From Shigella virus Moo19: DNA of 64,000 bases. Location of the stretch: the sequence record MZ358387, one strand, 5' to 3'. The notes under the pieces were generated by a model. It was not told the DNA's origin. It worked only from the letters and a program-made list of their open reading frames with translations, and ran no database searches. Made by a program: the position numbers and the translations under genes. The number at the start of each line of letters is the position of its first letter. Position 1 is the stretch's first letter. Positions 1,012-62,368 of this stretch are shown piece by piece.

Positions 1012-1288
1012 CCCTCATAACTTATCTCTAGTGCACCCGGACGCAGAACCTTATCTATTAAGTGACGTTGGTTATGTACTCAGCGGTGAGTCCAAAGTCG
1101 TTATGCTTACCAGTGAGTCAGCTAACCTATTCCTCGTTGAGTGCATGATGCGGGGTGTCAATGCTGATATCACCCTCAAGGAACCAGGTGAGAAAGTATA
1201 TGGTGGCCTGCTCTGCTACTTAATACATAGTCCGCATGAGTATCCTGACTACGATAATGATGGTTATGTCTGGATAAGGAGGCCGTAA
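1004..1288 (+). CDS. Hypothetical early protein, paralog family member C (ends WIRRP)
   Basis: ORF track 980-1288; ATG 1004 overlaps upstream stop (ATGAGTAA). Confidence 0.45.
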   Translation: MSNPHNLSLVHPDAEPYLLSDVGYVLSGESKVVMLTSESANLFLVECMMRGVNADITLKEPGEKVYGGLLCYLIHSPHEYPDYDNDGYVWIRRP

Positions 1289-1563
1289 TGTTTGCCTATT
1301 TTGTACGCTCTACTTACGATGCCTACCACGGTATGCTATCCATCAAGTTAGAAGTAGGGCAACACTGGCCTACTTTTGAACCAGGAACAGCAGCTATTTG
1401 GGTTCATCCTGACATAGACTTTCATGAAGTACAGGGTGACCTGTTACTTCGGGGTAAGACAGCTAAGCTGATGGAATGTCCTCCGAACTATCGAATAAAA
1501 GAGAGTGGCATATTCATCCTGGCTCATAGTTACAGTAATGCACTGGAGTTACTGCGTCCATGA
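1288..1563 (+). CDS. Hypothetical early protein, paralog family member D (FHEVQGDLLLRGKTAKL, ends LLRP)
   Basis: ORF track; start overlaps upstream stop (TAATG). Confidence 0.5.
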   Translation: MFAYFVRSTYDAYHGMLSIKLEVGQHWPTFEPGTAAIWVHPDIDFHEVQGDLLLRGKTAKLMECPPNYRIKESGIFILAHSYSNALELLRP

Positions 1564-1922
1564 ATCTCTTCCTAATACCCCCTATGTCCTGTAATCCGCT
1601 TAAGCTGGTGGGCGAACAACCTACCTGGGATAGACTTGGCGTAACTAAAGAGACTGTCCTGTATGAACCAAGTGAAGAAGCACACGAGTTCATTGGTCAC
1701 TGTCTCATGATAAGTAGTGAAATACAGTTCAAGTCTCTTGCTGAACCAGTAGAAGTAAGGGAACAGGATAAGGTTTATGTAATAGGGCATCACTATCCTG
1801 ATGTATGCACCACCTTACAGGGCAGGCTTATCAGGCTTACTGATGAGAGTACCTGCATCCAGTGTACCTGCTATCACCCCTGCCCTTCTTCAAAGAAGGT
1901 TATCTACCCACTGGATATCTAA
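1560..1922 (+). CDS. Hypothetical early protein, paralog family member E (AHEFIGHCLM), Cys-rich C-terminus
   Basis: ORF track; ATGA overlap with upstream gene. Confidence 0.45.
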   Translation: MNLFLIPPMSCNPLKLVGEQPTWDRLGVTKETVLYEPSEEAHEFIGHCLMISSEIQFKSLAEPVEVREQDKVYVIGHHYPDVCTTLQGRLIRLTDESTCIQCTCYHPCPSSKKVIYPLDI

Positions 1923-2210
1923 ATGAATCTTACTAAGATACACGTTACTCCTACTAAGATGGTTAACTGTCCTATAACTAAAAAGTTATTTACTGTATCC
2001 AGTGACATACTCATTCTTGTACCAGACCTGGATAGCTTTCATGAAGTGAAAGGACAGGAGATGTTACTCAATAAGAAATGGGAAGTTCATCTACTTGAAC
2101 CAGGAAAGGAACTTAGGTGGCTGGGTATGTACAGTCCCTGGCATCTTAATACGGATAGCTACCGTCTTACCTTTACTGACCATATTGCTGTATATACTCC
2201 ACGCCCCTAG
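1923..2210 (+). CDS. Hypothetical early protein, paralog family member F (FHEVKGQEMLL, ends YTPRP)
   Basis: ORF track; tttcatgaagt nucleotide motif shared with members B and D. Confidence 0.5.
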   Translation: MNLTKIHVTPTKMVNCPITKKLFTVSSDILILVPDLDSFHEVKGQEMLLNKKWEVHLLEPGKELRWLGMYSPWHLNTDSYRLTFTDHIAVYTPRP

Positions 2211-2245
2211 CTCCTCAAACATAACTGCTTATAAAGAGTAACCTC

Positions 2246-2434
2246 ATGGATAATATTGCATTAAAAAACTACCGTACTGCTATTCAAGCCATAGAGCTTA
2301 TTAAAGCAGAGGTAGAAGTAACCTTTGGGTTACACGTAGGAACAGACCCAGAACCAGAAATAATGGTGGAAGCTTATAACATTGTTCTGGCTATACGTGC
2401 AGGTTATAACAGGCTATGCGAAGCATCTAAATAG
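2246..2434 (+). CDS. Hypothetical small protein (62 aa)
   Basis: ORF track only. Confidence 0.3.
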   Translation: MDNIALKNYRTAIQAIELIKAEVEVTFGLHVGTDPEPEIMVEAYNIVLAIRAGYNRLCEASK

Positions 2435-2480
2435 GAGGTATATAATTACCCTCTATCTAATATTTTTGCATGTCAAAATG

Positions 2481-2593
2481 GTGATAGCTACTTGTGATAG
2501 CTGTGGTGTGGCAGGGGCTACACCCTTACACGTTAACTACCCCCCCGGTATGTTGACTCATGGGTGTACTACCCTACCCCACCTTACACGTTA
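2481..2593. repeat. Intergenic direct repeats: gtgatagct x2 (2481, 2494) and ccttacacgtta x2 (2524, 2582), plus repeated ctaccc runs
   Basis: Read directly from sequence. Confidence 0.6.
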
Positions 2594-2595
2594 CA

Positions 2596-2608
2596 CATGC
2601 TCCGCATG
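2596..2608 (+). promoter_or_regulatory. Tri-loop hairpin catgc-TCC-gcatg (bottom strand GC-GGA-GC); candidate N4-type vRNAP early promoter hairpin
   Basis: Perfect 5-bp stem, 3-nt loop; same core as hairpins at 3584 and 7442; upstream of ORF 2652. Confidence 0.35.
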
Positions 2609-2651
2609 GTATGGACATGTCGTCCTTATCATTAACTATTGGAGCTATACA

Positions 2652-2972
2652 ATGACTACTACTGCTAACGTACGTATGACTGCTGGAACTTTACTGGGTA
2701 CTGTAAATGAAGCAGCTACTACTATTGCTGATACCTTTGGTACTGCAACTAAAGCTGTTGGTATGCTGAACTCATATGTCACTACTATGAGTGAGAAACA
2801 ACGTATTCGTACTAAATTGGAAATGCATACATTTACCAATAAATTAGCTGAAGAAACAGCTATGCAAGATACTATCCGTAAGAAAGCTATCGTAGAATTC
2901 TGCAAAGATGAAAAGAATGCTGAACTCTATAAAGCATCTTACGATGATGTAATGGCACTGTTATCTAAATAG
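2652..2972 (+). CDS. Hypothetical protein (106 aa)
   Basis: ORF track frame 2382-2972; ATG 2652 has ggag RBS 8 nt upstream; upstream part of track ORF is repeat-rich intergenic DNA. Confidence 0.4.
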   Translation: MTTTANVRMTAGTLLGTVNEAATTIADTFGTATKAVGMLNSYVTTMSEKQRIRTKLEMHTFTNKLAEETAMQDTIRKKAIVEFCKDEKNAELYKASYDDVMALLSK

Positions 2973-2981
2973 TAAAATAAC

Positions 2982-3010
2982 GGAAGACTCCTTGGAGTCT
3001 TCCTGTTTTA
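2982..3010 (+). terminator. Rho-independent terminator (9-bp stem ggaagactc/gagtcttcc, loop cttg, then tgtttta)
   Basis: Read directly. Confidence 0.6.
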
Positions 3011-3013
3011 AAG

Positions 3014-3032
3014 ATTAGATAGTCAATCTAAT
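3014..3032. promoter_or_regulatory. Palindrome attagat-agtca-atctaat containing 14-mer ttagatagtcaatc (second copy at 3529-3542)
   Basis: 7-bp inverted repeat read directly; lies just after a terminator and upstream of ORF 3063. Confidence 0.4.
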
Positions 3033-3062
3033 TTGAATAAATAGTTAAAAGAGAATCCTACT

Positions 3063-3209
3063 ATGAGCAAACTAAAAAACGCATTTATCCTGATTGTCAG
3101 TATCCTTGCACTTGTTACTTTGGTTTCCGTTCACATTGGAAAACCTCTGGTAAACACTGACTATGGTAATGGTCAAAAAGTAAAATCCATCCTGTTAGCG
3201 GATAAGTAA
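3063..3209 (+). CDS. Small putative membrane protein (48 aa, MSKLKNAFILIVSILALVTLVSV...)
   Basis: Hand-translated; hydrophobic N-terminal segment; below the 60-aa cutoff of the ORF track. Confidence 0.3.
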   Translation: MSKLKNAFILIVSILALVTLVSVHIGKPLVNTDYGNGQKVKSILLADK

Positions 3210-3276
3210 AAACCGCATCTAGAAACTGGGCTGTTCCACAGCTTACGGATACATTTCAACCAATTAGGAGGCATCC

Positions 3277-3492
3277 ATGAACGTAGAAAATATCCGTATA
3301 ATTGAGAATTGCTTTGGTGATAAACCAGTAGACCTCAGCAACGCAAGAAGGTCTACAGATGAAGAATACAGAGAGTTTTTATCCTTACTCGATGAATATC
3401 ATATGCAAGGGCATGTTGAATTACATGCCCATCTGCATAACTCAGGCTACTTCATGGATAAACTGGAAGCTGAGACAGGCTGTCCATTCTAA
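3277..3492 (+). CDS. Hypothetical protein (71 aa)
   Basis: ORF track; strong RBS aggagg upstream. Confidence 0.45.
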   Translation: MNVENIRIIENCFGDKPVDLSNARRSTDEEYREFLSLLDEYHMQGHVELHAHLHNSGYFMDKLEAETGCPF

Positions 3493-5404: not shown

Positions 5405-5625
5405 TGATTCTTAATCCTAATTACCGTACATGTGAAATATGTGGTAAACACAGGGCTAAGGGAAATCATAATAAGTGTTCACGTATACTACAGAAGCAAC
5501 GTAATAATGCTGAACAAGCATTAATATTAGAGAACCAGAGGAAACACGAAGAGTACATCTCTGTTCGTAAGGCTTCTCTAAACAAATTTAGAAGGAAACC
5601 ATTTATACGTATAAGTAAAGGTTAA
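5404..5625 (+). CDS. Hypothetical basic protein with CxxC...H...C (possible zinc-binding)
   Basis: ORF track; composition. Confidence 0.35.
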   Translation: MILNPNYRTCEICGKHRAKGNHNKCSRILQKQRNNAEQALILENQRKHEEYISVRKASLNKFRRKPFIRISKG

Positions 5626-5627
5626 CT

Positions 5628-5912
5628 ATGAAAGTAATCACCTATCCTACTCATAAAATAGCACTCTACATGGGACAAAAAGTAGAAGTTCCATTATGGG
5701 TTAAATATTTAGCAGTACTTCCAATGATGTATGGTCATTCAAGTTCTGCACTAATTGGCTTCAGCCATAAACCCAAATTCACTAAGACTGGTATTTGGAA
5801 AATATCATCTCAGTATAAGAACACTAAGCAGGAACAAATAGGCATAGTCCGTAACTTTGCTCCTGCTAAAAATGAAATTGAAGCTACTCTAAGTGAGGTT
5901 CTATTACCATGA
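5628..5912 (+). CDS. Hypothetical protein (94 aa)
   Basis: ORF track. Confidence 0.4.
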   Translation: MKVITYPTHKIALYMGQKVEVPLWVKYLAVLPMMYGHSSSALIGFSHKPKFTKTGIWKISSQYKNTKQEQIGIVRNFAPAKNEIEATLSEVLLP

Positions 5913-6223
5913 CTACCATCGTAGTATTGCATGACACCACATTCAAAGATGTGGATAAGATGATGAACAATATAGACTATGTTGCTCAGCATTCTAAAGC
6001 ATTCAATGGGGAGTTCACTATTTATTGTGAACCAGAATCTCCATTGGCTCCTGTATTAAAAGAAGCAGGGCTTCCGTTCAGTACTACTGACTTCCCAGAA
6101 GAACCTGACTTCGTTATCTCATTCATCTACGATTTACACGACGGTTCTAAAGCCAGTGAACTGGCAATGAACCAGTGGAAGTCTCGCCGTCCTGTATGGC
6201 CTTTCCAGGTACTGAAACCATGA
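5909..6223 (+). CDS. Hypothetical protein (104 aa)
   Basis: ORF track; ATGA overlaps with neighbours. Confidence 0.4.
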   Translation: MTTIVVLHDTTFKDVDKMMNNIDYVAQHSKAFNGEFTIYCEPESPLAPVLKEAGLPFSTTDFPEEPDFVISFIYDLHDGSKASELAMNQWKSRRPVWPFQVLKP

Positions 6224-6600
6224 AGACTATCTCATTAGGTGACGATACCAATGCTTTGCTGGGTGTAGCTGCACGTCCAATCATCATTGTTAATAAACAT
6301 CATGGTAAACCGGGTGAGTATATTGGACGTGGTTCACCATTGGGTAATCCATACCCAATTGGTGATAAATACAACCGTCAACAAGCTATTGCTATGTATC
6401 GTGTCTGGCTGCAAGAACAGATTGATAAAGGTAATCCAGTTGTACTGGATGAACTTAATCGTCTGGGTAATAAAGCCATTGACGAAAAAGGACTGGCCTT
6501 ACAGTGCTTCTGTTATCCGAAACCATGTCATGGTGAGGTTATTAAAGAGAAGCTCGTAGAGGCTATGTACAACTACTTTGTGGAGAATCCAAATGAGTAA
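6220..6600 (+). CDS. DUF4326-like protein (GRGSPLGNPY ... CFCYPKPCHGEV)
   Basis: Motifs GNP and C-x-C-x-P-x-P-CHG recalled as DUF4326 signature; ATG 6220 overlaps upstream stop. Confidence 0.5.
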   Translation: MKTISLGDDTNALLGVAARPIIIVNKHHGKPGEYIGRGSPLGNPYPIGDKYNRQQAIAMYRVWLQEQIDKGNPVVLDELNRLGNKAIDEKGLALQCFCYPKPCHGEVIKEKLVEAMYNYFVENPNE

Positions 6601-6787
6601 GCAATGTAAATGTGGTAAAGGCTATGTATCCCAATGGGATGATAAGTGTGGTAAATGCCGAACCAAGAAGGAACAGCGTGACCATCAAATAGCTTTAAGG
6701 GACTTAGACCTGTATATCGCAGGTCGTCCAGAATTTAATATGACTCCACAAGAAGCCTATAAAGGCTTAAGGAAACTGTACAAATGA
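6593..6787 (+). CDS. Small zinc-ribbon-like protein (CKCGKG...CGKC)
   Basis: ORF track frame; ATG 6593 with ggag RBS; two Cys pairs. Confidence 0.4.
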   Translation: MSKQCKCGKGYVSQWDDKCGKCRTKKEQRDHQIALRDLDLYIAGRPEFNMTPQEAYKGLRKLYK

Positions 6788-7167
6788 AAGAAATATTCGT
6801 ATTCGGTTCTAATCTGGCTGGTGTACACGGTGCTGGTGCAGCTAAGACTGCATATAAGAAGCACGGTGCTCGTTGGGGTATGGGCGTAGGCCATTATGGT
6901 TGCAGCTATGCAATTCCAACTAAAGACCAGAACATCAAAACAATGGAGTTGGTTGATATCGCTGTATTTGTATCTGCCTTCATCCTGTATGCAGCAGCAC
7001 ACCCAGAGTGGGACTTCAAAGTAACACGAGTAGGTTGTGGGCTGGCTGGCCTGTCTGATAAAGACATGGCATTCATGTTCTTACCTGCAACAGGTAATGT
7101 CATGTTTGATGAAGCATGGAAACCTTATTTAGGTGATACCTATAACTACTGGGGTACATTCGAATGA
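6784..7167 (+). CDS. Gly-rich Rossmann-like motif protein (FVFGSNLAGVHGAGAAKTA...GCGLAGL); possible nucleotide-binding (SLOG/macro-like?)
   Basis: Motif only; family assignment uncertain. Confidence 0.35.
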   Translation: MKEIFVFGSNLAGVHGAGAAKTAYKKHGARWGMGVGHYGCSYAIPTKDQNIKTMELVDIAVFVSAFILYAAAHPEWDFKVTRVGCGLAGLSDKDMAFMFLPATGNVMFDEAWKPYLGDTYNYWGTFE

Positions 7168-7436
7168 CCTATGAAGAATTATGGGCTGCTCAAGTAAGAA
7201 GTAAGGCGAGAGCCTTTGCTCATGTCTACAGCACATTGCAGCATCTTATTAAAAGCAGAACCAAAGCTGGACATATACATGGTTACTACAAAGAAGATTG
7301 TATTCCCGATGGTGACTACCTATGGGATAAAAGAATCCGTCACGAGAGTGACATTATAAAAGTGAATATTGCTATTCATTCATACCCACCAAGGGGTAAT
7401 CGCTACCTATCTATTCACTTTTATACAAAGCGTTAG
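7164..7436 (+). CDS. Hypothetical protein (90 aa)
   Basis: ORF track. Confidence 0.4.
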   Translation: MTYEELWAAQVRSKARAFAHVYSTLQHLIKSRTKAGHIHGYYKEDCIPDGDYLWDKRIRHESDIIKVNIAIHSYPPRGNRYLSIHFYTKR

Positions 7437-7441
7437 GTAAT

Positions 7442-7488: not shown

Positions 7489-8307
7489 ATGTACTCATCT
7501 ATTGAACATCAGAAGCAACTGGAAACTCTGTTTAACAAGAATCAACTAATTCCTCGTATGAGGAAAGAGTTCGAGGACTCCGAAGAAATCCAATTCACTA
7601 AGTATTTTGAGCATATTGGCATCGACCCCAAACTGGGTATTGATGCAATGGTGCAAATTGCTCTGCATAAACGTGCTGACATTCCTACTATGGTTGGCTC
7701 ACTCATGAGTCACAGTCAGGATGCTCAGTACATAGCAGACACTCTGCTTAAGATGGCAGAGCACGACTGCTTTGACTTCGACCCAAGTATCGATAAGTTC
7801 ATCGTCATCTATGAAATCAGTGATGATGTACAACTGGAACTGGAAGCATTCCAGTATCCACTGCCTATCGTCAGTGAACCGAGAGAGGTTAAAGATAACC
7901 GTGGCTCAGGTTACTGGAATACCAAAGGCAGTATCATCCTCAAGAAGAACCACCATGAAATGGATGTGTGTCTCGACCACATTAACCGTATGAACAATCA
8001 ACGACTCAGCATCAACTGGGACGTTGCCAAGTTCGTCAAAAACTCATGGGCTAACCTGGATAAACCTAAAGAAGGGGAATCCCGTCAGGACTTTCAGAAG
8101 CGTGTACGTGCATTCGAGAAATACGACCGTACAGCAAAAGACGTTATGGAACTGGTGACTAAAGAAGGTAACAACTTCTCACTTGACCATAAGTATGACA
8201 AGCGTGGACGCACCTACTCACAGGGCTACCACATTAACTATCAAGGTACTAGCTGGAATAAAGCTGTTATCGAGTTCGCTGATAAGGAGTTGGTAAACGA
8301 TGAGTAG
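7489..8307 (+). CDS. Phage RNA polymerase II small subunit (N4 gp15-like)
   Basis: 272 aa; lies upstream of a T7-like RNAP C-terminal-half homolog; N4-like organisation; strong RBS aggag. Confidence 0.55.
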   Translation: MYSSIEHQKQLETLFNKNQLIPRMRKEFEDSEEIQFTKYFEHIGIDPKLGIDAMVQIALHKRADIPTMVGSLMSHSQDAQYIADTLLKMAEHDCFDFDPSIDKFIVIYEISDDVQLELEAFQYPLPIVSEPREVKDNRGSGYWNTKGSIILKKNHHEMDVCLDHINRMNNQRLSINWDVAKFVKNSWANLDKPKEGESRQDFQKRVRAFEKYDRTAKDVMELVTKEGNNFSLDHKYDKRGRTYSQGYHINYQGTSWNKAVIEFADKELVNDE

Positions 8308-8587
8308 GAAAGAATTTAAAGCTATTGCTCAAACCAGTGGTGGTATGGGCACATTAGCACTAGGAGAAGACGGTACAGTACTGTACACGGCTTACGACGT
8401 ATTATCTGGCAAAACAGTAACAGTATGTCTGTTCTTTGATGTAAATACTTACATGTCACTGGAGAATGCTTTCTCAGATTTCAGCAATGTTATGCGTAAT
8501 CGTGACCAGAAAGCTGACTTAACTCCGGCTGACAAAGACTTCCAGGCAATCCTCAATGACCTGAAGAAACCAGGCAAACTTCATTAA
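8300..8587 (+). CDS. Hypothetical protein between the two RNAP II subunit genes
   Basis: ORF track. Confidence 0.4.
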   Translation: MSRKEFKAIAQTSGGMGTLALGEDGTVLYTAYDVLSGKTVTVCLFFDVNTYMSLENAFSDFSNVMRNRDQKADLTPADKDFQAILNDLKKPGKLH

Positions 8588-8636
8588 TTAACCCATATGC
8601 GTGTTCCATACAGGAACCAGATGCAGGAGTAATAAA

Positions 8637-9854
8637 ATGCAAACTTTTACCGCTAAACAGTACCTGGCTATCGATATCGCTAACAACTTTGGTCTGGATA
8701 AGAAGACCTGGGATGAGCGTTTGGCCTGGTTCGATGAGAACAAAGACAACCTCATGAACCAGTTAGAAGCAGCAGAGGAACCTGCTCTGTATTATGCAGG
8801 CGTTAAAGCCTATGAAGACATGCTGGCTGGTAAGCCTATTGGTTATACCATTGCACTGGATGCTACTGCATCTGGTCTGCAATTACTGGCATGTCTGACT
8901 GGTGACCGTAAGGCTGCTCAGTTGTGTAACGTAGTGAACTACTATGGTAGCGAAGGCAAGGCTCGTCGTAGCGATGCCTACACCGTTATCTACCGTACCA
9001 TGCTGGAAGCCGTAGGTCAGTCTTCTCGTGTTAAACGTGATGACTGTAAGCAGGCTGTAATGACTGCATTCTATGGCTCAGAAGCTAAGCCTAAAGAAGT
9101 GTTCGGTGAAGGTATTCTGTTGAAGACCTTTGAACACGTAATGGGTATCGAAGCACCTGGCCCGTGGGAACTGAACAAGTTCTATCTGCAATGTGGTAAC
9201 CCGGATGCAACCTCATATTTATGGGTTCTGCCGGATAACTTCCATTGTCAGATTAAGGTAATGGTTGACGAAGTACAGACCATTAACTTTATGAACAAGC
9301 CATATGACATCATTCGCAAAGTACAGGGTACTGAAGAGAAGACTCGTATGCTCTCTGCTAATACCACTCACTCAATTGATGGAATGGTAGTGCGTGAGAT
9401 GCTGCGTCGTTGTAACTATGATGCTGACCTGATTACCTATGTAAAACAGCTTTGCTATGGCGTACAGGAATCAAATGTATTCCTGCCAGAAAACGCTGAA
9501 ATGGTGCATGAGTTATGGAACCACTATGAACGTAGTGGTTTCCTGTCCATGCGTATCTGCGATTATCTGGATGCAGGCTCCATCGCTCTGGTTGACCGTC
9601 AGGTCATCCTTGAGATGCTGGAGACTCTGCCTAAGAAGCCATTCAAAGTACTGACTGTACATGACTGCTTCCGTTGCCATCCTAATTATGGCAATGACCT
9701 GCGTCGTCAATACAATCAGATTCTGTCTGACATTGCTAAATCCAACCTGCTGTCATTCATTCTGTCTCAGGTACTGGGACAAGAGTTCACTGCTGGTAAG
9801 CTGGACAATGACATGTGGAAAGATGTCTTAGACGCTGAGTACGCATTAAGCTAA
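8637..9854 (+). CDS. Phage RNA polymerase II large subunit, T7-like single-subunit RNAP catalytic half (N4 gp16-like)
   Basis: Motifs DATASGLQ (motif A-like), KQAVMTAFYGS (motif B-like), TVHDCF (motif C-like); ATG 8637 with aggag RBS (track ORF starts 8601). Confidence 0.75.
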   Translation: MQTFTAKQYLAIDIANNFGLDKKTWDERLAWFDENKDNLMNQLEAAEEPALYYAGVKAYEDMLAGKPIGYTIALDATASGLQLLACLTGDRKAAQLCNVVNYYGSEGKARRSDAYTVIYRTMLEAVGQSSRVKRDDCKQAVMTAFYGSEAKPKEVFGEGILLKTFEHVMGIEAPGPWELNKFYLQCGNPDATSYLWVLPDNFHCQIKVMVDEVQTINFMNKPYDIIRKVQGTEEKTRMLSANTTHSIDGMVVREMLRRCNYDADLITYVKQLCYGVQESNVFLPENAEMVHELWNHYERSGFLSMRICDYLDAGSIALVDRQVILEMLETLPKKPFKVLTVHDCFRCHPNYGNDLRRQYNQILSDIAKSNLLSFILSQVLGQEFTAGKLDNDMWKDVLDAEYALS

Positions 9855-9857
9855 TAT

Positions 9858-9895
9858 GAGCCTCATACCTTCGGGTATGGGGCTTATTTTTTTCG
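9858..9895 (+). terminator. Rho-independent terminator (catacc-ttcg-ggtatg extended, then ttattttttt)
   Basis: Read directly. Confidence 0.6.
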
Positions 9896-9911
9896 AATTG
9901 AGGACACAACT

Positions 9912-10733
9912 ATGCCTGAGTTAAAAGTTGCTTTTAACAAAGACACCTATGTAGCTACCGTACTGGATGCCAGTGGTAGCGTTCCGAGTGGTTCTGTGAA
10001 CGTAGGTACTTTCTTCCATCCTGATGAGACTTACCCTGATAGTTATGTTATCTATCATGGTGTTCGTGAACTCCTGTATAAGCGTTCTGAAGTTGACCCG
10101 GCACAACCAGGCTTCTGGCCTGAGAACATTACCAACATGCAAGCTGTTACCATCGATAACAAGGCTACTGCACGTCTGGTACTGAATACCTCCCTACCTC
10201 GTGTAGTATCTACCATCGAAGGTGGTAAGGTTACTCTGTCTGTTGTTGCTCTGGGTGGTAAGGCTCCTCTTAAATACAAGTGGGAGTTCCGTGCACCTAA
10301 TGCTTCAACCTGGACTGCTGTATCTGGGCAGACTACTGCTAATCTGGTTCTGGATAATATCGATGCTGATAAAGCAGGTGAGTATAAAGTCACCGTTACC
10401 GATGCTGCCGGAACCAGTGTAGATAGTACTGCTCTGGTAGCTGTGGGTGCTTATCCACCACCAGCACTGACGGGCATTAAGGCTACGCCTACTTCCCTGT
10501 CTCTGTCTGTAGCTACTGACGCTGCTGGTAAAACTGTAGCTCTGTCTGCTATCCCGACTGATGCTGAACTGGGTACATTGTCTATTAAGACTGCTCCAGA
10601 TTCTGCTCGTGCTACTGCTACTATTTCTGGTTCTACTCTGACTGTTAAACCAGTGGCTGCTGGTGCTGCAACTTCTGTTGTAGTAACCAACGGTAAAGTT
10701 GATGTGACTATCACTATCAACGTTGCAGCATAA
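9912..10733 (+). CDS. Ig-like domain protein; probable capsid decoration protein (N4 gp17-like)
   Basis: Ig-like sequence features (GEYKVTVTDAAG; Big_2-like C-terminal repeats); position after RNAP II genes. Confidence 0.5.
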   Translation: MPELKVAFNKDTYVATVLDASGSVPSGSVNVGTFFHPDETYPDSYVIYHGVRELLYKRSEVDPAQPGFWPENITNMQAVTIDNKATARLVLNTSLPRVVSTIEGGKVTLSVVALGGKAPLKYKWEFRAPNASTWTAVSGQTTANLVLDNIDADKAGEYKVTVTDAAGTSVDSTALVAVGAYPPPALTGIKATPTSLSLSVATDAAGKTVALSAIPTDAELGTLSIKTAPDSARATATISGSTLTVKPVAAGAATSVVVTNGKVDVTITINVAA

Positions 10734-10754
10734 GCTGATAGTTTTGTTTGGCTA

Positions 10755-10784
10755 AAGCCCTCCTTGTGAGGGCTTTCTTGTATC
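10755..10784 (+). terminator. Terminator-like hairpin (aaagccctc-cttgt-gagggcttt)
   Basis: Read directly; T tract weak. Confidence 0.5.
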
Positions 10785-10799
10785 TATAGGAGAGTAAAA

Positions 10800-11114
10800 G
10801 TGACTAACAAATTACGTGTATGGCATATCCCGCAAGTGCCAATGAAAGCATTCTTTGTAGAATGCGATAGCATTCAGGAAGCTGTTAAAATTCGTAGTGC
10901 ACTGGCAGATTACGACTTGTTCCAGTATGAGAACAATGTCAAAGGTGATTACTGTAACGCCAGCGGTATTCATATCTGGGATGAAACTCTGTCTGACCAA
11001 GACCTCATCGATATGGAACTAGACGACCGTTGGGTTGACTGGTTCTATGAAGATGAAAATGAATACTTCGATGACCCAGAAGAATATCTGGAATGGCTTG
11101 CTACGCAATCCTGA
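10800..11114 (+). CDS. Small acidic protein (C-terminal half D/E/W/Y-rich); candidate DNA-mimic-type host-interference protein
   Basis: ORF track (GTG start with aggag RBS); composition; bracketed by terminators. Confidence 0.45.
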   Translation: MTNKLRVWHIPQVPMKAFFVECDSIQEAVKIRSALADYDLFQYENNVKGDYCNASGIHIWDETLSDQDLIDMELDDRWVDWFYEDENEYFDDPEEYLEWLATQS

Positions 11115-11161: not shown

Positions 11162-11190
11162 GACCTCCCTAAATGGGAGGTCTTTTTTTG
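11162..11190 (+). terminator. Rho-independent terminator (gacctccc-taaat-gggaggtc + T7)
   Basis: Read directly. Confidence 0.75.
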
Positions 11191-11216
11191 GTTGTTATCT
11201 ACTTTGGAAAATAAAT

Positions 11217-11417
11217 ATGAAATTTTCTGATTTACTCTGGGCAATTCTATTCCTGTTACTTACTGCCTTTATTTATGGGGTAGTACTGCCTAATGCAGTA
11301 TCTGCTTCAGATAGTATAAGTGTAGTAATTGGATTGATTGTTTCTATTATGTGGCCTGTTATAGCAGGTCGTGTTGTTTACCTTATCGTTAAGAAACGGA
11401 AGAAGAAACATGCGTAA
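11217..11417 (+). CDS. Small membrane protein (66 aa, two hydrophobic segments, basic C-terminus)
   Basis: ORF track frame 11115-11417; ATG 11217. Confidence 0.4.
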   Translation: MKFSDLLWAILFLLLTAFIYGVVLPNAVSASDSISVVIGLIVSIMWPVIAGRVVYLIVKKRKKKHA

Positions 11418-12246
11418 ATTTATTATAGGTTGTTTACTGGCAATAGTTGCAATGGCTAGTCTTACTGGTTGTTATCAACGAGTAGAGCCAGGTAATGTAG
11501 GTATTATCGTTAACCGTTTGGGTGACGATAAGGGCGTTGACCAACAAGTAAAAGGCGTAGGCCGTTACTGGATTGGTTGGAATGAAGACCTGTATACGTT
11601 CCCGACATTCAAACAGATGAAAACCTACGACGATAAGTTTTACTTCCAACTGTCGGACGGTACTCAAATTGGCCATCAACTGGCTATCAGCTATAAGGTC
11701 AACCCGACCAAAGTAGCGACCATCTTCCAGACCTACCGTAAAGGTGTCGATGAAATCACTGACCAGGATTTACGTCAGCGTATTGCCGATATCCTGAACC
11801 GTCAGGGTAACCTGATTAACACTGACAAGTTCATTGACGGTGGTAAGTCACGTTTGCTGGATAGTGTAGCTGATGCAGTTAAAAAAGAGATGGAGCCAGT
11901 CGGTATCGACATTATGGCTATCTCCTGGGTAGGTGCACCGGAATACCCGGACAACGTGAAGCGTGCAATTAACGCGAAAGTTGAAGCTACCCAGAAAACC
12001 CTGCAACGTGAGCAAGAAGTGCAACAGCGTATCGCTGAAGCAAATATGGCTCGTGAGCAAGCCAAAGGTGAAGCTGATGCCGTAGTACTGAAAGCAAAAG
12101 CAGAAGCTGATGCTATTAAGCTGCGTGGTGATGCACTTCGTGAAAACCCTGGTGTAATGGAACTGGAAGCAATCAACAAGTGGAATGGTGTATTACCAAC
12201 CACAATGATTCCAGGTGCAGCCACACCATTTGTGCCTGTTAAATAA
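11410..12246 (+). CDS. SPFH/band-7 (prohibitin/HflC-like) lipoprotein
   Basis: Lipobox LTGC after signal peptide; SPFH-like core and C-terminal coiled-coil; ATG 11410 with ggaag RBS. Confidence 0.65.
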   Translation: MRKFIIGCLLAIVAMASLTGCYQRVEPGNVGIIVNRLGDDKGVDQQVKGVGRYWIGWNEDLYTFPTFKQMKTYDDKFYFQLSDGTQIGHQLAISYKVNPTKVATIFQTYRKGVDEITDQDLRQRIADILNRQGNLINTDKFIDGGKSRLLDSVADAVKKEMEPVGIDIMAISWVGAPEYPDNVKRAINAKVEATQKTLQREQEVQQRIAEANMAREQAKGEADAVVLKAKAEADAIKLRGDALRENPGVMELEAINKWNGVLPTTMIPGAATPFVPVK

Positions 12247-12252
12247 CAATAA

Positions 12253-12282
12253 AACCCCCAGACATTGCTGGGGGTTTTTACG
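12253..12282 (+). terminator. Rho-independent terminator (aaccccca-loop-tgggggtt + T tract)
   Basis: Read directly. Confidence 0.7.
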
Positions 12283-12295
12283 TCTGGAAAGTGTA

Positions 12296-12646
12296 ATGGA
12301 AAAGAACCGCAGGAAGACACTCATTGAGCGTCTGCTTGCCCGTATCAAGATAATGGATATGGGCTATACCGTTAATGGTCAGCCAAGCCTATGCCACATC
12401 TGGACTGGTTCCCACTCTGGGAATGGTCGAGGTGGTCAATATGGCAGGATTTCCGTGAATGGAGTTACCTCTGCTACACATATTGTGGCCTATACCCACT
12501 ATCACGGTTACATCCCTTGCAAAATGCAGGTAGACCATCTCTGTAATAACCGTCTGTGCTGTAACCCGGAACATCTCGAACTGGTGACTCACCAAGAGAA
12601 CCAGAGAAGAAGAGCTGCACGCCAAACTAAAGGTAAAAAGAAATGA
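12296..12646 (+). CDS. HNH homing endonuclease (HNH_3 type)
   Basis: Motifs CHIWTGS...GYI...VDHLCNNRLCCNPEHL...HQEN; ATG 12296 downstream of terminator. Confidence 0.7.
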   Translation: MEKNRRKTLIERLLARIKIMDMGYTVNGQPSLCHIWTGSHSGNGRGGQYGRISVNGVTSATHIVAYTHYHGYIPCKMQVDHLCNNRLCCNPEHLELVTHQENQRRRAARQTKGKKK

Positions 12647-12813
12647 TGAACTATTTAGGTGGTATTACTCTTGGTTGGCTTATTACCGCATTAGTTTTTG
12701 TATATCTGCCAGATGAGCATATTGCTAAAGCAAAAGCCATGAAAGAAACTTGCGAACAAAAACTTTCTCGTGAGCAGCAATGTGTAATGCAATTCGTACC
12801 GGAGAAAAAATGA
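12643..12813 (+). CDS. Small membrane protein (56 aa)
   Basis: Hand-translated; hydrophobic N-terminus; overlapping start/stop with neighbours. Confidence 0.3.
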   Translation: MMNYLGGITLGWLITALVFVYLPDEHIAKAKAMKETCEQKLSREQQCVMQFVPEKK

Positions 12814-13380: not shown

Positions 13381-13732
13381 ACCATTAGATATTAATGATA
13401 CCGGGCTGTGTGAAGCACTGCTCATCATGGGCGACGAAAAAGCCGTAGCCTGGGCATGGATTCGAGGTTATACCAAGAATCTGCTACAACAAATCGAAGA
13501 GTATCTCGGTGACACAGACTATAAATATCAGTCCAATGTCATTGAAGATGAATACGACTTAATGGAACTCGCTGACGGTCACCAAAATGGTAACTGGGGC
13601 GATTACATGATTGTCGGTGGACTCTTTGAAGGTGAAAGAATTGACCCAACTTTTTGGAACAAATATGCCCTCGTCCGTGGTATTCCTCGTGAAGAAATTT
13701 CAGAAAGTAATCTCTTCTCTTGCTCCTGTTAA
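13373..13732 (+). CDS. Hypothetical protein (119 aa)
   Basis: ORF track frame 13346-13732; ATG 13373 overlaps upstream stop. Confidence 0.4.
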   Translation: MSEPLDINDTGLCEALLIMGDEKAVAWAWIRGYTKNLLQQIEEYLGDTDYKYQSNVIEDEYDLMELADGHQNGNWGDYMIVGGLFEGERIDPTFWNKYALVRGIPREEISESNLFSCSC

Positions 13733-13743
13733 GGAATGAAATA

Positions 13744-14799
13744 ATGTCAAACATCGATTCACTTGTCGTGTGTAACTCAAGACAAGCTCGTAAATTTATC
13801 ATCCGTGCATTGCAGGCAGGTAACGTACCGTTCCTGACCTCCTCACCCGGTATGGGTAAATCTGCAATGATTCATAGCATTGCAGAAGAATTTGGCATGA
13901 AGCTGATTGACCATCGTCTGTCTACTTCTGCCCCAGAAGACCTGTCTGGTCTGCCACGTTTCCGTCCAGATGGACGTGCAGAGTTTGCACCGTTTGCAGA
14001 CCTGTTCCCACTGGAGGGTGACGAAGTACCCGAAGGTTATAACGGCTGGCTCCTATTCCTTGATGAGTTCAACTCAGCCAAGAAAGAAGTTGTTGCTGCT
14101 GCATACAAACTGATTCTCGACCGTATGACTGGTCAGAAGAAGCTGCATCCTCAAGTGATGATTGTATGTGCTGGTAACAAACAAACTGACCGTGCAATCG
14201 TTAACCCAATGGGTACTGCAATGCAGTCTCGTGTTGTGCATCTGGAAATGGAAATCAACTTCGACATCTTTGTCGAAGACGTAATGATTCCTCAGAAATG
14301 GGATGAGCGTTTAGTTGCATTCCTCCATGCTAATACGTCGTATCTGCATGACTTCGACCCGGCACACAAGAACAAAACGTTCTGCTGTCCTCGTACCTGG
14401 GACTTCGTTAACGAAGACCTAAAGAACCAGCCTCCTGGTGCTCTGCCTGATGAAGATTCTATCTTCTATGCTGGTCACGTCACTGCTGGTAAGGCAACTG
14501 AGTTCGTTCAGTTTACTCAGGTATATAACCAACTGGTCACTATTGAGCAAGTGGTTAAAGACCCTAAAGAGGCACGTTTACCGAAAGATAACAACCTCTG
14601 CTGGGCAACTGTTACCTATCTGGCTAATAAGACCACGGTAGATAACTTCCCGGATGTAGTTGAGTATATCCAGCGTCTGGATAAGATGACTCACCGCATC
14701 CTGTACTTCCGTACTGTGCATAAAATCGTACCAGATGTTACTGGCCTCCCTGAATGGCGTAAAGCTGGTGCAGAACTGTCTCGCTACCTACACGGATAA
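13744..14799 (+). CDS. MoxR-like AAA+ ATPase
   Basis: Walker A SSPGMGKS, Walker B LLFLDEF; ATG 13744 with aagga RBS. Confidence 0.75.
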   Translation: MSNIDSLVVCNSRQARKFIIRALQAGNVPFLTSSPGMGKSAMIHSIAEEFGMKLIDHRLSTSAPEDLSGLPRFRPDGRAEFAPFADLFPLEGDEVPEGYNGWLLFLDEFNSAKKEVVAAAYKLILDRMTGQKKLHPQVMIVCAGNKQTDRAIVNPMGTAMQSRVVHLEMEINFDIFVEDVMIPQKWDERLVAFLHANTSYLHDFDPAHKNKTFCCPRTWDFVNEDLKNQPPGALPDEDSIFYAGHVTAGKATEFVQFTQVYNQLVTIEQVVKDPKEARLPKDNNLCWATVTYLANKTTVDNFPDVVEYIQRLDKMTHRILYFRTVHKIVPDVTGLPEWRKAGAELSRYLHG

Positions 14800-61251: not shown

Positions 61252-61752
61252 CTATTGTAAAAGTTTCCGGTCGGCCTTGATTTGGTTCCCCAACTCAATC
61301 AATTGGTTGTCACGGAGTCTAACAGTTGCCCTGAGTTCTTCAACCACTCGTCTGCCTTGTTCAAGACTGGAGTCGAGTTCGGCTGCATGGCTTGCAAGAC
61401 TTCTGCACTCAAAGGTTCCGGCTTCGGCTTGACGTTTATATACGTCGGCTCTTTTGCTTGATTGCTGCATCCGGCTGTCGTAATCACTGCTAAGGCGAGC
61501 AAGCTCGCCTGCGTAATTACTCTCAGCCGTCTGCAATCTGGTAGTGAGCATACCGACTTCATAGCTGTGTTGTCTGTTAAGGACATCGTATTCACCCTTA
61601 AGTTTATTGTAGGCTTTCTGGTCTTCTACTTTCTGAGCATCCCACTTGGCCTGAACTTTATCCTGACCATTACTGGAACCCCAAAAGTAAATGGTGGCTC
61701 CCAAAGCCACCACTACCAGATAAGGCCAACCTTTAGAGATTAGCGTCATCAT
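61252..61752 (-). CDS. i-spanin (Rz-like): N-terminal TM plus periplasmic coiled-coil
   Basis: ATG 61752 with ggagg RBS; TM segment [22 protein letters not shown]; adjacent to endolysin. Confidence 0.5.
61299..61586 (-). CDS. o-spanin (Rz1-like) lipoprotein embedded in the i-spanin gene in another frame
   Basis: Lipobox-like ITTAGC after hydrophobic signal; ATG 61586 with aaggg RBS; embedded architecture. Confidence 0.45.
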   Translation of the reverse strand: MSLTDNTAMKSVCSLPDCRRLRVITQASLLALAVITTAGCSNQAKEPTYINVKPKPEPLSAEVLQAMQPNSTPVLNKADEWLKNSGQLLDSVTTN

Positions 61753-62368
61753 TACATGCCTCCAGAGGCACATTACCAATACGGTTTGATATCCAGCCAT
61801 ACGTATAGTCAGGCATGTTTAACGAGGTGTAGTGATTAAGTTGTTTACCATCCAATAGCTTAATCATAGTCTTACAGGCTTCTACTTTGCCTCGTTTTTT
61901 CTGGAGTGCCCTATACGAGTTAATGGTTGCTGTACCAACTTTACCATCAACTTGTATTTTAGGGTAGTCTTTGCCATTACGACTAACGTCATTCAAAGAC
62001 TCTTGAAGCCAACGTGCTGGACGTGGTGTCCCAGTGTTTACTCCAGCATCCACCAGCTTGTGGGTCACAGCAGGACTAATAGAAGCGAACTCAATAAAGT
62101 TTGGCTTGATAATGTAGTCATCAACATAAACTTCAGCAGCCATCTCTTTAGTAAGTCCTTTCATAGTCCCATCCCATCCGTATTTCTTTGCTAAGACTTC
62201 CTTGTGGGACTGGGCTACTTTCTTAGTTATCCCGTGATTAGTTTCCCCTCCTGGGTCTTTGGGGTCATTTACATAACCACCTTCCAGCATAAAAACGGAA
62301 CCAAGAATGGCAGCAACTACTGCTCCCACTGCACCACCCCTGGTTGCTAGTTTTTTATTTATTGCCAT
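61733..62368 (-). CDS. GH108-family N-acetylmuramidase endolysin with N-terminal SAR-like hydrophobic segment
   Basis: Signature EGGYVNDPKDPGGETNHGIT; N-terminal GGAVGAVVAAILGSVFML; gaggagg RBS. Confidence 0.75.
   Translation of the reverse strand: MAINKKLATRGGAVGAVVAAILGSVFMLEGGYVNDPKDPGGETNHGITKKVAQSHKEVLAKKYGWDGTMKGLTKEMAAEVYVDDYIIKPNFIEFASISPAVTHKLVDAGVNTGTPRPARWLQESLNDVSRNGKDYPKIQVDGKVGTATINSYRALQKKRGKVEACKTMIKLLDGKQLNHYTSLNMPDYTYGWISNRIGNVPLEACNDDANL

Follow-up and report, generated by a model that had tools for sequence, protein, structure and literature searches.

Shigella virus Moo19 carries an accessory gene pair that encodes a 66-residue membrane protein and a 278-residue lipoprotein with an SPFH fold; the two proteins are obligate partners, are joined in some phages into a single polypeptide, and are inherited in mosaic fashion. 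We analyzed a stretch of 64,000 nucleotides of its genome (sequence record MZ358387), referred to here as the window. Genes of the gp19/gp20 type are already annotated and the family is catalogued in many phages, some relatives carrying the annotation "SPFH domain-containing protein"; new here are the obligate hairpin partner, the fusions, the restriction of the residue that follows the lipidated cysteine (position +2), and the swapping of the SPFH gene body. The gene architecture is well supported, and from it we infer a function. We propose tentatively, as a model with somewhat less than an even chance of being correct, that during lytic growth the pair forms a ring or cage resembling a split HflK/C, placed on the periplasmic side of the inner membrane and probably acting on a host inner-membrane client such as FtsH.

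Gene layout and flanking hairpins

The pair and its surroundings are arranged on the plus strand of the window as follows.

10800..11114, +, upstream gene, N4 gp18 homolog (P22 gp17-like, annotated "superinfection exclusion"; Pfam GP17 E=2.9e-46; PHROG 1510 E=5.3e-49; syntenic with N4 gp18)
11162..11189, +, upstream hairpin followed by U7, terminator-like (hairpin 11162-11182 + T7; 8-bp stem, 6 GC pairs; -16.6 kcal/mol, z=-3.45)
11217..11417, +, small partner gene, N4 gp19 family (ATG 11217, TAA 11415-11417, 66 aa; two-helix membrane hairpin)
11410..11417, +, 8-nt overlap of the small-gene stop and the SPFH-gene start, read from the sequence
11410..12246, +, SPFH lipoprotein gene (ATG 11410, TAA 12244-12246, 278 aa)
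12251..12283, +, downstream hairpin followed by a U-run, terminator-like, with symmetric A-run/T-run (hairpin 12251-12278 + T5; 11-bp stem, 6 GC pairs; -18.5 kcal/mol, z=-4.3)
12296..12646, +, downstream HNH endonuclease gene, N4 gp22 homolog (Pfam HNH_3 E=3.8e-19; PHROG 1872 E=4e-45)

The small protein belongs to PHROG 1130 (E=4.3e-16) and the SPFH protein to PHROG 200 (E=5.6e-96), and the GC content of the pair shows no anomaly apart from T-rich membrane codons. The two genes share the 8-nt overlap ATGCGTAA, a layout typical of translational coupling. The identical overlap is found in N4 and in Klebsiella and Enterobacter N4-like phages; elsewhere, homologous gene pairs abut or overlap within ~20 nt.

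The preliminary description of this locus had placed the unit between two strong terminators. Both hairpins are real (z=-3.5 and -4.3, respectively), with a stability equal to that of the downstream element (12251-12278) reached in 0/200 shuffles, and the region contains 11 terminator-like sites vs 3.0 +/- 2.2 in shuffles. Transcriptional autonomy, however, is unproven. Similar hairpin-plus-U elements are located 3' of each preceding gene (9856-9887 and 10754-10776), again with N4 counterparts, and such an element stands behind every gene from 8.6 to 12.3 kb, as it does in N4, where the equivalents of the two flanking elements are at L001 3883-3899 (upstream) and L001 4959-4981 (after gp20). 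The upstream hairpin is assigned to the gp18-like unit and is kept in relatives that lack the pair; similarity to Gamaleyavirus extends to ~11190, i.e., through this hairpin. The stretch from the upstream hairpin to the small gene (11183-11216) contains no sigma-70-like promoter. Since neighboring genes are also followed by hairpin-plus-U elements and a sigma-70-like promoter is absent, the flanking terminators do not demonstrate an autonomous transcription unit, and the locus cannot be called a "moron" with its own promoter and terminator, its GC content also being unremarkable.

Anchor and fold of the SPFH lipoprotein

Four segments can be distinguished along the larger protein.

11410..11472, +, lipoprotein signal peptide with lipobox L-T-G-C21 and Tyr at +2 (from the sequence; N-terminus MRKFIIGCLLAIVAMASLTG-C21)
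11479..12027, +, SPFH/Band-7 domain, residues 24-206, starting 3 residues past the lipidated Cys (Pfam PF01145, Band_7, E=1.2e-22)
11950..12144, +, single long helix, residues 181-245 (65 residues), the coiled-coil "wall" segment of SPFH cages (AF2; prohibitin-2 match)
12145..12243, +, conserved C-terminal tail …NPGVMELEAINKWNGVLP…TPFVPVK (invariant residues in 37 sequences)

A 66-aa membrane protein and an SPFH lipoprotein with a coiled-coil tail had both been anticipated in the preliminary description. The former is borne out by the open reading frame at 11217-11417 with its two hydrophobic helices, the latter by the lipobox, the Band_7 match, the AF2 helix at residues 181-245 and Foldseek matches over the full length. 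As judged by Pfam, the Band_7 assignment is secure, with a score of 81.2 bits vs a cut-off of 23.6. In the AF2 model, a beta-rich core (residues 21-97) precedes a set of helices (99-164), a strand (166-178) and the long helix; the latter region also matches the coiled coil of prohibitin-2 (residues 198-261) by sequence (E=4.5e-5). Foldseek aligned the model with many SPFH structures at a probability of 1.00, and the full-length matches include prohibitin (8rrh_B, E=5.7e-14), HflK/C (7vhq, 7wi3 and 9cz2, ~1e-11 to 1e-13), stomatin, erlin and QmcA-YbbJ (8z5g). The modeled fold is that of an SPFH protein, nearest to prohibitin and HflK/C. Eight tail residues are invariant among 37 sequences (P247, L252, K257, W258, G260, P263, P273 and F274), and in the model the position of the tail corresponds to the cap or oligomerization segment of SPFH cages, with low model confidence (pLDDT <50 for residues 252-278).

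The lipobox is present in 119/119 close homologs, in which the +2 residue is Tyr (61), Asp (50), Glu (5) or Trp (2), and never Ser, Ala or Asn. The latter three residues are typical of outer-membrane lipoproteins, Asp at +2 is the canonical Lol-avoidance signal, and aromatic +2 residues reportedly kept lipoMalE in the inner membrane (Seydel et al. 1999). The limitation of +2 to D/Y/E/W points to retention in the inner membrane, a prediction made from sequence. The retention rule for Tyr comes from one reporter study, which counts against a firm inner-membrane assignment; in distant fused homologs, +2 is often Ser or Thr, and the sorting rule varies by taxon.

A two-helix membrane hairpin as obligate partner

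AF2 models the 66-aa protein as two hydrophobic helices, residues 3-28 and 33-64, with a mean pLDDT of 87, and the C-terminal tail is basic (KKRKKKHA). The predicted topology is N-in/C-in, such that the periplasmic loop bears the family motif P25-x-x-V-S29. Across 38 diverse family members, with identity down to 14%, residues P25, S29, G39 and P47 are invariant, and P-x-x-V/I-S in the loop is the sole strongly conserved polar stretch. The protein is 100% identical to a database entry named "membrane protein [Shigella virus Moo19]". A tblastn search of phages with the 66-aa protein returned nothing, probably because of the low-complexity filter, whereas an HMM and a large protein database did recover the family. 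No Pfam family matched the hairpin above noise, and NfeD was matched in 0/38 family members.

The hairpin HMM matches directly upstream of the SPFH gene at 86/86 loci with an enterobacterial-type gene, a set that takes in N4-like, P2-like (P88), P1-like and rV5-like (PVP-SE1) phages as well as 80 IMG/VR contigs, and it matches at no locus without an SPFH gene. The hairpin protein is an obligate partner of the enterobacterial-type SPFH protein. Single-polypeptide forms account for at least 12 sequences, each standing for a different cluster at 50% identity, and are arranged as hairpin with motif, basic linker, signal peptide with lipobox, and SPFH domain; an enterobacterial fused form, P0063, is also known. 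These fusions place the C-terminus of the hairpin in the cytoplasm, so that its loop would share the periplasmic side with the SPFH domain. In four of five more distant phages (Pseudomonas TL, Staphylococcus Kayvirus with MbpV, phiCbK and Burkholderia), the upstream gene likewise encodes a membrane protein.

The strict pairing at these loci and the independent fusions speak against the locus being functionless passenger DNA spread with the neighboring HNH homing endonuclease, or a misread lysis device of the spanin/holin type, which we find barely credible. The HNH gene does lie immediately downstream and is variable among relatives (Jgk1 and N4 have one, U1G does not), but most carriers of the pair lack the adjacent HNH gene. 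Purifying selection is strong both in the SPFH protein, with 91 invariant columns among 37 sequences and identity down to 61%, and in the hairpin with its four invariant residues, and the passenger reading is largely refuted by these conservation data. The combination of a small inner-membrane protein and a lipoprotein superficially resembles an i-spanin/o-spanin pair. However, the inner-membrane subunit of a spanin pair needs a periplasmic coiled coil, and its outer-membrane lipoprotein must be short and rich in proline, whereas the hairpin has no periplasmic domain and the lipoprotein has an SPFH domain and a length of 278 aa. The true spanin, endolysin and holin genes belong to a complete N4-type lysis cassette on the minus strand (61255-62929).

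In its size (~66 aa), its two transmembrane helices and its charged C-terminus, the hairpin also resembles a class II holin or pinholin, although in this phage its location relative to the endolysin does not fit. The SPFH protein could be a scaffold that keeps the inner membrane energized and intact during a long infection, or one that restrains a holin-like partner, preventing premature release of the SAR endolysin and aiding lysis inhibition of the N4 type. In Kayvirus, mbpV-mbpS directly follow lysK in the lysis region, and MbpV has been noted as holin-like. Lysis inhibition is seen in N4, which has the pair, and not in G7C, and the pair is missing from G7C-like phages, a correlation that covers just two phages. 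Among bacterial SPFH proteins, YdjI/PspA and flotillins serve membrane-stress responses. We nevertheless regard a role in membrane stabilization and lysis timing as distinctly unlikely: the window phage has its complete lysis cassette elsewhere, and more than 60 rapid-lysis isolates of N4 map to gp61, gp63, vRNAP and the terminal repeats, with gp19/gp20 unmentioned.

Distribution, mosaic inheritance and gene context

Homologs are found in 694/50,697 phage records (~1.4%) and in 677/5,426 complete E. coli genomes (12%), in the latter within prophages and phage-plasmids. SPFH proteins are also encoded by giant viruses. The preliminary description had not counted SPFH proteins in the N4 core gene set, and the premise that N4 lacks the pair proved incorrect: its orthologs at the syntenic locus, between gp18 and gp21/gp22, are N4 gp19, annotated as "membrane protein", and gp20, annotated as "lipoprotein". 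These genes, together with their Enquatrovirus, Klebsiella, Enterobacter and Erwinia N4-like orthologs, share with the window the position between gp18-like and gp22-like HNH genes, the overlap and the flanking hairpins; in N4, an additional gene, gp21, precedes the HNH gene. The view that the pair is accessory among N4-like phages did hold. It is absent at the corresponding slot in Gamaleyavirus U1G and Jgk1, and whereas N4-type RNAP2 occurs in ~425 phage records, merely ~35-40 N4-like records are among the close SPFH matches. The pair is not a component of all N4-like phages with a structural role, and its larger protein does have an SPFH fold. It is accessory within N4-like phages and optional in many unrelated phages; the window phage itself has its relatives among the G7C-like phages, from which the pair is otherwise missing.

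Compared with N4, the SPFH proteins are 81% and the hairpins 60% identical; compared with Enterobacter phage SABI, the corresponding values are 97% and 42%. The window thus combines a SABI-like SPFH allele with an N4-like hairpin, and its pair is recombinant. The SPFH gene body has been swapped between two phages that are 95-99% identical elsewhere, leaving 59-77% nucleotide identity within it; the swapped block covers residues ~50-265. Internal allele swapping of this kind is expected less of a proteostasis factor of the housekeeping type than of genes engaged in conflict between phages or between phage and host.

Divergence confined to the SPFH gene body is a pattern common in exclusion, immunity and receptor genes, and, with the accessory, patchy and mosaic character of the pair, it fits a role in superinfection exclusion or inter-phage competition. 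Cage and hairpin would then alter or occupy inner-membrane sites and block the DNA of a second phage, resembling T4 Imm or P22 SieA in effect, not in structure. The pair adjoins the gp18/P22-gp17-like gene, whose annotation is exclusion-related; its predicted site of action would be the inner membrane; and it is frequent in E. coli prophages and phage-plasmids. On the other hand, known exclusion proteins are route-specific, whereas the hosts of the carriers, Gram-negative and Gram-positive, and the entry routes are very diverse, and temperate phages hold the pair in lytic operons rather than in prophage-expressed moron positions. Neither protein matches any PADLOC family, so that neither is assigned to a defense or exclusion system covered by the PADLOC models, and we know of no exclusion protein with an SPFH fold. 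On balance, exclusion seems to us an unlikely function.

Gene order suggests that the pair is expressed in the lytic phase. It lies in the early/middle region of N4, in the early operon of P88 between cox and a replication gene, in a leftward operon of phiP27, and co-directional with ban in P1-like phages, the same slot in P1 itself being downstream of the C1-controlled Pban promoter. The P1-like variants bear the SPFH pair in the variable slot of the ban operon that plp/upl occupy. The idea that P1 plp/upl are the same pair did not hold: Plp of P1 is another protein, 125 aa long and encoded on the opposite strand.

A lytic-phase expression context would also suit a cage that shields the inner membrane from lethal abortive-infection effectors of the host, which depolarize or perforate it. 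The broad host range of the carriers, the allele swapping, which suggests an arms race, and the predicted periplasm-facing location in the inner membrane are compatible with such counter-defense. This support is purely circumstantial, no anti-defense protein of the SPFH-cage type is known to us, and we judge the explanation very unlikely.

Relation to known SPFH systems

The E. coli HflK/HflC-FtsH system shares with the window protein the SPFH core, the long helix and the C-terminal cap segment. The likeness would extend to the N-terminal anchor in the inner membrane and the periplasmic SPFH domains, which in the window protein are predicted from its sequence. However, HflK/C consists of two SPFH paralogs with a transmembrane helix and no separate two-helix partner, whereas the window has one SPFH gene, a lipid anchor and such a partner. 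The protein is not an HflK or HflC ortholog, as judged by the NCBIfam scores (TIGR01932, 23.9 bits vs 134.4; TIGR01933, 15.7 vs 159.4) and by the single SPFH gene. Prohibitin (PHB1/PHB2) is the best match by both sequence and structure, with a similar length and domain order and an orientation facing away from the cytoplasm or matrix. It differs in being a eukaryotic hetero-oligomer of the mitochondrial inner membrane with an N-terminal transmembrane anchor, and the identity is just 16-19%.

With respect to gene organization, the pair matches the SPFH-NfeD operons (QmcA-YbbJ, YqiK-YqiJ, and archaeal stomatin with the STOPP protease), in which an upstream gene for a small membrane protein is co-transcribed with the SPFH gene: in both, the membrane-protein partner is adjacent, co-directional and sometimes fused. 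For SPFH-NfeD systems, the helices of the partner are believed to lie within the cage or beneath it (8z5g is among the Foldseek matches). In contrast to the phage SPFH protein, which is predicted to be exported, QmcA and YqiK face the cytoplasm. The phage hairpin was rejected as an NfeD-type partner; it has neither the NfeD OB-fold domain (PF01957) nor any Pfam match.

Phage "Band 7 lipoproteins" of PHROG 200, Staphylococcus Kayvirus MbpV/MbpS among them, belong to the same family, with 21-29% identity and a membrane-protein gene directly upstream. The Kayvirus pair differs in its Gram-positive host and in having a transmembrane anchor with no clear lipobox, and its upstream partner (102 aa, one transmembrane helix) has no detectable homology to the enterobacterial hairpin. 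In the literature, these phage proteins appear as annotations with speculative roles only. Functional studies of phage SPFH proteins or of N4 gp19/gp20 were found neither in the literature searched, which gave speculative remarks only, nor in CRISPRi-ART or transposon essentiality screens, and a 2026 paper on a Schitoviridae phage states that the reason for the presence of the SPFH protein "remains unclear".

Proposed mechanism

In the split-cage model that we favor, both genes would constitute one module, expressed during lytic growth by phages of many families. The 278-aa product would be exported, lipid-modified on Cys21 and most likely retained in the inner membrane; with the SPFH domain starting three residues past the lipid anchor, this domain would be located at the periplasmic side of that membrane. 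By means of its long helix and conserved tail, the protein probably builds a ring or cage, as prohibitin and HflK/C do. Both ends of the hairpin would be cytoplasmic, and its conserved loop, P-x-x-V/I-S, would be exposed in the periplasm where the SPFH domain is expected, allowing a putative contact between the two. The overlapping stop and start codons suggest that the hairpin is made in equal amounts. In HflK/C and prohibitin, the N-terminal helix of the protein itself is the membrane-spanning "fence"; here the hairpin would provide this part in trans, and the pair would represent a split HflK/C-like protomer.

By homology and topology, the cage would most likely enclose or regulate a host inner-membrane client. 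HflK/C and prohibitin form extracytoplasmic cages around FtsH-type proteases, the partner of prohibitin being the mitochondrial m-AAA protease. FtsH heads the candidates, being the sole known bacterial client of periplasm-facing SPFH cages. As a result, membrane proteolysis or proteostasis would be altered during infection. Several observations weigh on this model. The protein is not an HflK or HflC ortholog, there is a single SPFH gene, the anchor is a lipid rather than a transmembrane helix, the tail is modeled with low confidence, and the internal allele swapping is atypical of a proteostasis factor. In addition, (i) the family is also present in Gram-positive phages, where HflK/C is absent, which counts against an FtsH cage, and (ii) hairpin and SPFH alleles recombine freely, which would not be expected of a finely co-adapted interface, although contact through the invariant residues of the loop could be enough.

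Implications

SPFH proteins (prohibitins, stomatins, flotillins and HflK/C) occur throughout life, and structures of their cages have been solved only since ~2022. For the window alone the practical result is modest, gp19/gp20-type genes having been annotated before. A wider reading, which we hold to be doubtful, is that the pair is the prototype of an unrecognized and very widespread host-takeover module, in which a lipid-anchored SPFH ring and a two-helix hairpin fence on the outer face of the cytoplasmic membrane would, in lytic and temperate phages of many families, capture FtsH or wall off a patch of membrane and thereby control membrane proteolysis, lysis timing or the entry of rival phages. 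Should the pair prove to control FtsH, superinfection or the timing of lysis, it would represent a new kind of device for host takeover or competition. The compact phage version, present in N4-like, P1-like, P2-like and rV5-like coliphages, is genetically tractable and, if the model is true, would offer a simple model for client selection by SPFH cages and a natural tool for studying their roles.

Gene pair and flanking hairpins

Both open reading frames and both hairpins that the preliminary description placed in this part of the window are present, and two further hairpins precede them:

9856-9887 and 10754-10776: hairpin-plus-U elements after the two preceding genes
11162-11189: upstream hairpin, 8-bp GC-rich stem followed by T7
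11217-11417, + strand: small gene, 66-aa product, MKFSDLLWAILFLLLTAFIYGVVLPNAVSASDSISVVIGLIVSIMWPVIAGRVVYLIVKKRKKKHA
11410-12246, + strand: SPFH gene, 278-aa product, N-terminus MRKFIIGCLLAIVAMASLTGC-YQRVEPGNVG
12251-12283: downstream hairpin, 11-bp stem with a T-run

The stop codon of the small gene overlaps the start of the SPFH gene (ATGCGTAA). The pair had been described as a unit between two strong terminators. The hairpins themselves stand (upstream, -16.6 kcal/mol, z = -3.5; downstream, -18.5 kcal/mol, z = -4.3, both against shuffled sequences). They do not establish autonomy: such hairpins occur in series, and a search of the stretch from the upstream hairpin to the small gene found no sigma-70-like promoter. 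Comparable hairpin-plus-U elements lie 3' of gp16, gp17, gp18 and gp20 in N4. The pair is a member of a hairpin-punctuated gene series, and an autonomous unit is not demonstrable.

Four successive units (RNAP2 large subunit, Hoc-like gp17, gp18-like gene and SPFH pair) each close with a strong hairpin and U-run (9856-9887, 10754-10776, 11162-11182 and 12251-12278), with the next start codon only 15-35 nt further on; N4 is organized likewise. Rather than bounding independent units, these hairpins may be partial terminators or RNA-stabilizing 3' ends for N4-type polymerases.

Counterpart in N4 and accessory distribution

The position of the window pair is taken in N4 (NC_008720) by gp19 ("membrane protein", 8057-8263) and gp20 ("lipoprotein", 8256-9092), within the order RNAP2 (gp15/16), Hoc-like gp17, P22-gp17-like gp18, gp19/gp20 and HNH gene gp22. 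The premise that SPFH proteins are foreign to the N4 core set was therefore wrong as regards N4 itself. The pair is nevertheless accessory, as had been proposed, since it is missing from the G7C-type relatives U1G, where other small genes directly follow the gp18-like gene, and Jgk1, where the place before the equivalent HNH gene holds an unrelated ORF. The first 25 kb of the window are most similar to phages of this type (Gamaleyavirus, Jgk1; 78-82% nucleotide identity over about 40-60%), and the nearest record in the phage collection searched is Jgk1 (82%), with no near-identical record. The published genome description of Moo19, which does not mention the genes of the pair, sets this phage apart from every other Enquatrovirinae clade. 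An N4-type RNAP2 large subunit is found in about 425 phage records and a close SPFH homolog in 77, only about 35-40 of which are N4-like, namely Enquatrovirus and some Klebsiella, Enterobacter and Erwinia N4-like phages.

Directly 3' of the pair, the HNH endonuclease gene (12296-12646) is shared with N4 and Jgk1 and absent from U1G. In U1G, another HNH gene splits the gp24-like AAA ATPase gene (5507-7441 of that locus), which the window has in intact form (13720-14799). Homing endonucleases may help to drive the mosaicism of the region. Overlapping the HNH-gene stop is a 56-aa ORF (12643-12813) that has a single hydrophobic segment and ends ...CVMQFVPEKK; it is conserved in U1G and Jgk1 and represents another small membrane protein of the region. 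The gp18-like ORF of Jgk1 (2600-3064 of that locus) can be read with about 50 additional N-terminal residues, including a Walker-A-like GAQCTGKS, possibly an ORF-calling artefact because the record is unannotated and marked UNVERIFIED.

Predicted structures and lipid anchor

The SPFH assignment of the larger protein is borne out by Pfam Band_7/SPFH (residues 24-206, E=1.2e-22) and by Foldseek, which aligned nearly the full chain with cage-forming SPFH proteins, prohibitin among them (8rrh_B, E=5.7e-14). Further Foldseek matches were HflK/C (7vhq, 7wi3, 9cz2), stomatin, erlin, QmcA-YbbJ, flotillin and vault; in a search by sequence only, prohibitin-2 coiled coils were the sole solved relatives. 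The AF2 model (pLDDT 75) comprises a signal helix, a beta-rich SPFH core and a 65-residue helix (181-245), followed by a C-terminal tail that is highly conserved despite its low confidence. The protein also matches PHROG 200 "lipoprotein" (E=5.6e-96). It is orthologous to neither HflK nor HflC: its NCBIfam scores, 23.9 and 15.7 bits, fall well short of the cut-offs of 134 and 159. The small protein, modeled as a two-helix hairpin (pLDDT 87), matches PHROG 1130 "membrane protein" (E=4.3e-16) and no Pfam family.

All 119 close SPFH homologs carry a lipobox, and the residue following the lipid-bearing Cys (+2) is Asp (50), Tyr (61), Glu (5) or Trp (2) and nothing else. In E. coli, Asp at +2 classically retains a lipoprotein in the inner membrane, and aromatic +2 residues reportedly did so for a reporter lipoprotein (Seydel et al. 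1999). Because the SPFH domain starts only three residues past the Cys, it would be held at the membrane of its anchor. This is most likely the inner membrane, on its periplasmic leaflet, in the topology of HflK/C.

The hairpin partner

An HMM of 11 hairpin proteins matched directly upstream of the enterobacterial-type SPFH gene at 86 of 86 loci (80 IMG/VR contigs plus the window, N4, P88, a P1-like phage, PVP-SE1 and SABI), and nowhere in two relatives without the SPFH gene. The hairpin protein is an obligate partner of this SPFH type. Across 38 members, with identities as low as 14%, residues P25, S29, G39 and P47 do not vary; the family spans 148 clusters in a large database, all unnamed or "hypothetical", and those with a named source come from Enterobacterales or their phages. 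That the pair is passenger DNA, or a spanin/holin pair, is very improbable given the strong conservation and the family-membership tests, which contradict it.

At least 12 of the best 150 representatives at 50% identity are single-polypeptide fusions, in which a two-helix hairpin with P-x-x-[VI]-S is followed by a basic linker, a signal peptide with lipobox, and SPFH. They include P0243, P0250, P0253, P0262, P0265, P0266, P0275, P0277, P0278, P0334 and P0367, from many distant clusters. There is also an enterobacterial fusion, P0063. The fusions imply (i) that hairpin and SPFH protein are functionally linked, and (ii) that the hairpin ends are cytoplasmic, with the conserved loop and the SPFH domain on one side. 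They also account for the window protein corresponding to positions 80-359 of the 379-position PHROG 200 profile. If signal peptidase II still cuts at the lipobox, the fused precursor would be split post-translationally into two parts.

The holin-like hairpin could alternatively point to membrane stabilization or lysis timing, as could the lysis-module position of the pair in Kayvirus and the lysis inhibition shown by N4, which has the pair, and not by G7C, whose relatives lack it. The mutations of N4 rapid-lysis mutants, however, lie at other loci, and a separate, complete cassette is present in the window, making this role rather unlikely:

61255-62929, - strand: N4-type lysis cassette; homologs of gp60 spanin (58% aa), gp61 SAR endolysin (71%), gp62 holin (65%) and gp63 pinholin (62%)

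Mosaic inheritance and gene-order context

Hairpin and SPFH identities are discordant between phages, revealing mosaic inheritance.

Protein identities between phages
Window and Enterobacter phage SABI: SPFH 97%, hairpin 42%
Window and N4: SPFH 81%, hairpin 60%
L015 and L018 (IMG/VR contigs of Klebsiella/Enterobacter N4-like phages): SPFH 71%, hairpin 99%

Across the 3.8 kb compared, the last two are 95-99% identical in nucleotide sequence almost throughout, except for about 650 bp inside the SPFH gene (L015 3150-3800; roughly codons 50-265) at 59-77%; the signal peptide, the SPFH C-terminal end and the hairpin gene, outside this block, are alike. The SPFH body has therefore been exchanged as a cassette, and the abundant copies in host prophages and phage-plasmids are a plausible donor pool.

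From gene order, we infer that the pair has a lytic-phase setting in temperate carriers. P88 has it in the early operon, between cox and the replication gene; phiP27 has it in the leftward operon toward xis and int; and in P1-like phages it is co-directional with ban, in a variable slot whose P1 occupant, plp/upl/tciABC, is downstream of the C1-controlled Pban promoter. This slot, tRNA-flanked and situated upstream of ban, varies in its accessory content (9349-11009 of the P1 locus; 1177-3431 of that of P1-like Ro157c2YLVW), and the pair replaces plp, upl and tciABC in other P1-like phages and phage-plasmids. Allele swapping and the patchy distribution are what superinfection exclusion or inter-phage competition might produce, but the diverse entry routes of the carriers and the lytic-operon context argue against such a role, which we regard as unlikely.

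Proposed role and spread of the family

We consider it highly likely that the module has two parts made together: a prohibitin/HflKC-like protein, exported and lipid-anchored, and a two-helix hairpin. At the inner membrane, on the periplasmic side, it probably forms a putative ring or cage. Whereas HflK/C and prohibitin have their own membrane-spanning element, here it would come from the separate hairpin. The pair is a variant of SPFH-plus-partner operons: its anchor is a lipid, its hairpin partner is not of the NfeD type, and it has only one SPFH subunit. Capture or modulation of FtsH, or of another inner-membrane client, during lytic growth is our tentative first choice, because the closest solved relatives of the SPFH protein are extracytoplasmic cages around FtsH-type proteases and FtsH is present in all of the host groups involved; it matches one of the two roles suggested in the preliminary description. 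Counter-defence against membrane-targeting abortive-infection effectors seems improbable.

By tblastn, the SPFH protein matched 694 of 50,697 phage records, including Staphylococcus Kayvirus (MbpS), Pseudomonas Bruynoghevirus, Erwinia, rV5-like (PVP-SE1, 4MG), P2-like P88, P1-like, phiP27, Stx2, Burkholderia phiE125-like and Caulobacter phiCbK phages, SSU5-like phage-plasmids and Lak megaphages. Among 5,426 complete E. coli genomes, 677 have a homolog at the DNA level, named "SPFH domain-containing protein" by PGAP; plasmids of 94-110 kb account for about half of the matches. A library of 1.84 billion representatives yielded 181 proteins at E<=1e-30 and 990 at E<=1e-10, and giant viruses encode SPFH proteins too. 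The 248,734-bp record of Enterobacter phage SonariX (PQ898399.1) has an SPFH gene at 199942-200782, whose nucleotide and protein identities to the window equal those of the 76-kb N4-like vB_Ecl_SABI; the SonariX record may be a chimeric or concatenated assembly.

In the searchable literature we found no functional study of phage SPFH genes, mentions being confined to listing or speculation. The pair is real and correctly read as SPFH, and is less unusual than first supposed, being a further member of a catalogued, uncharacterized phage family (N4 gp19/gp20, PHROG 1130, PHROG 200).
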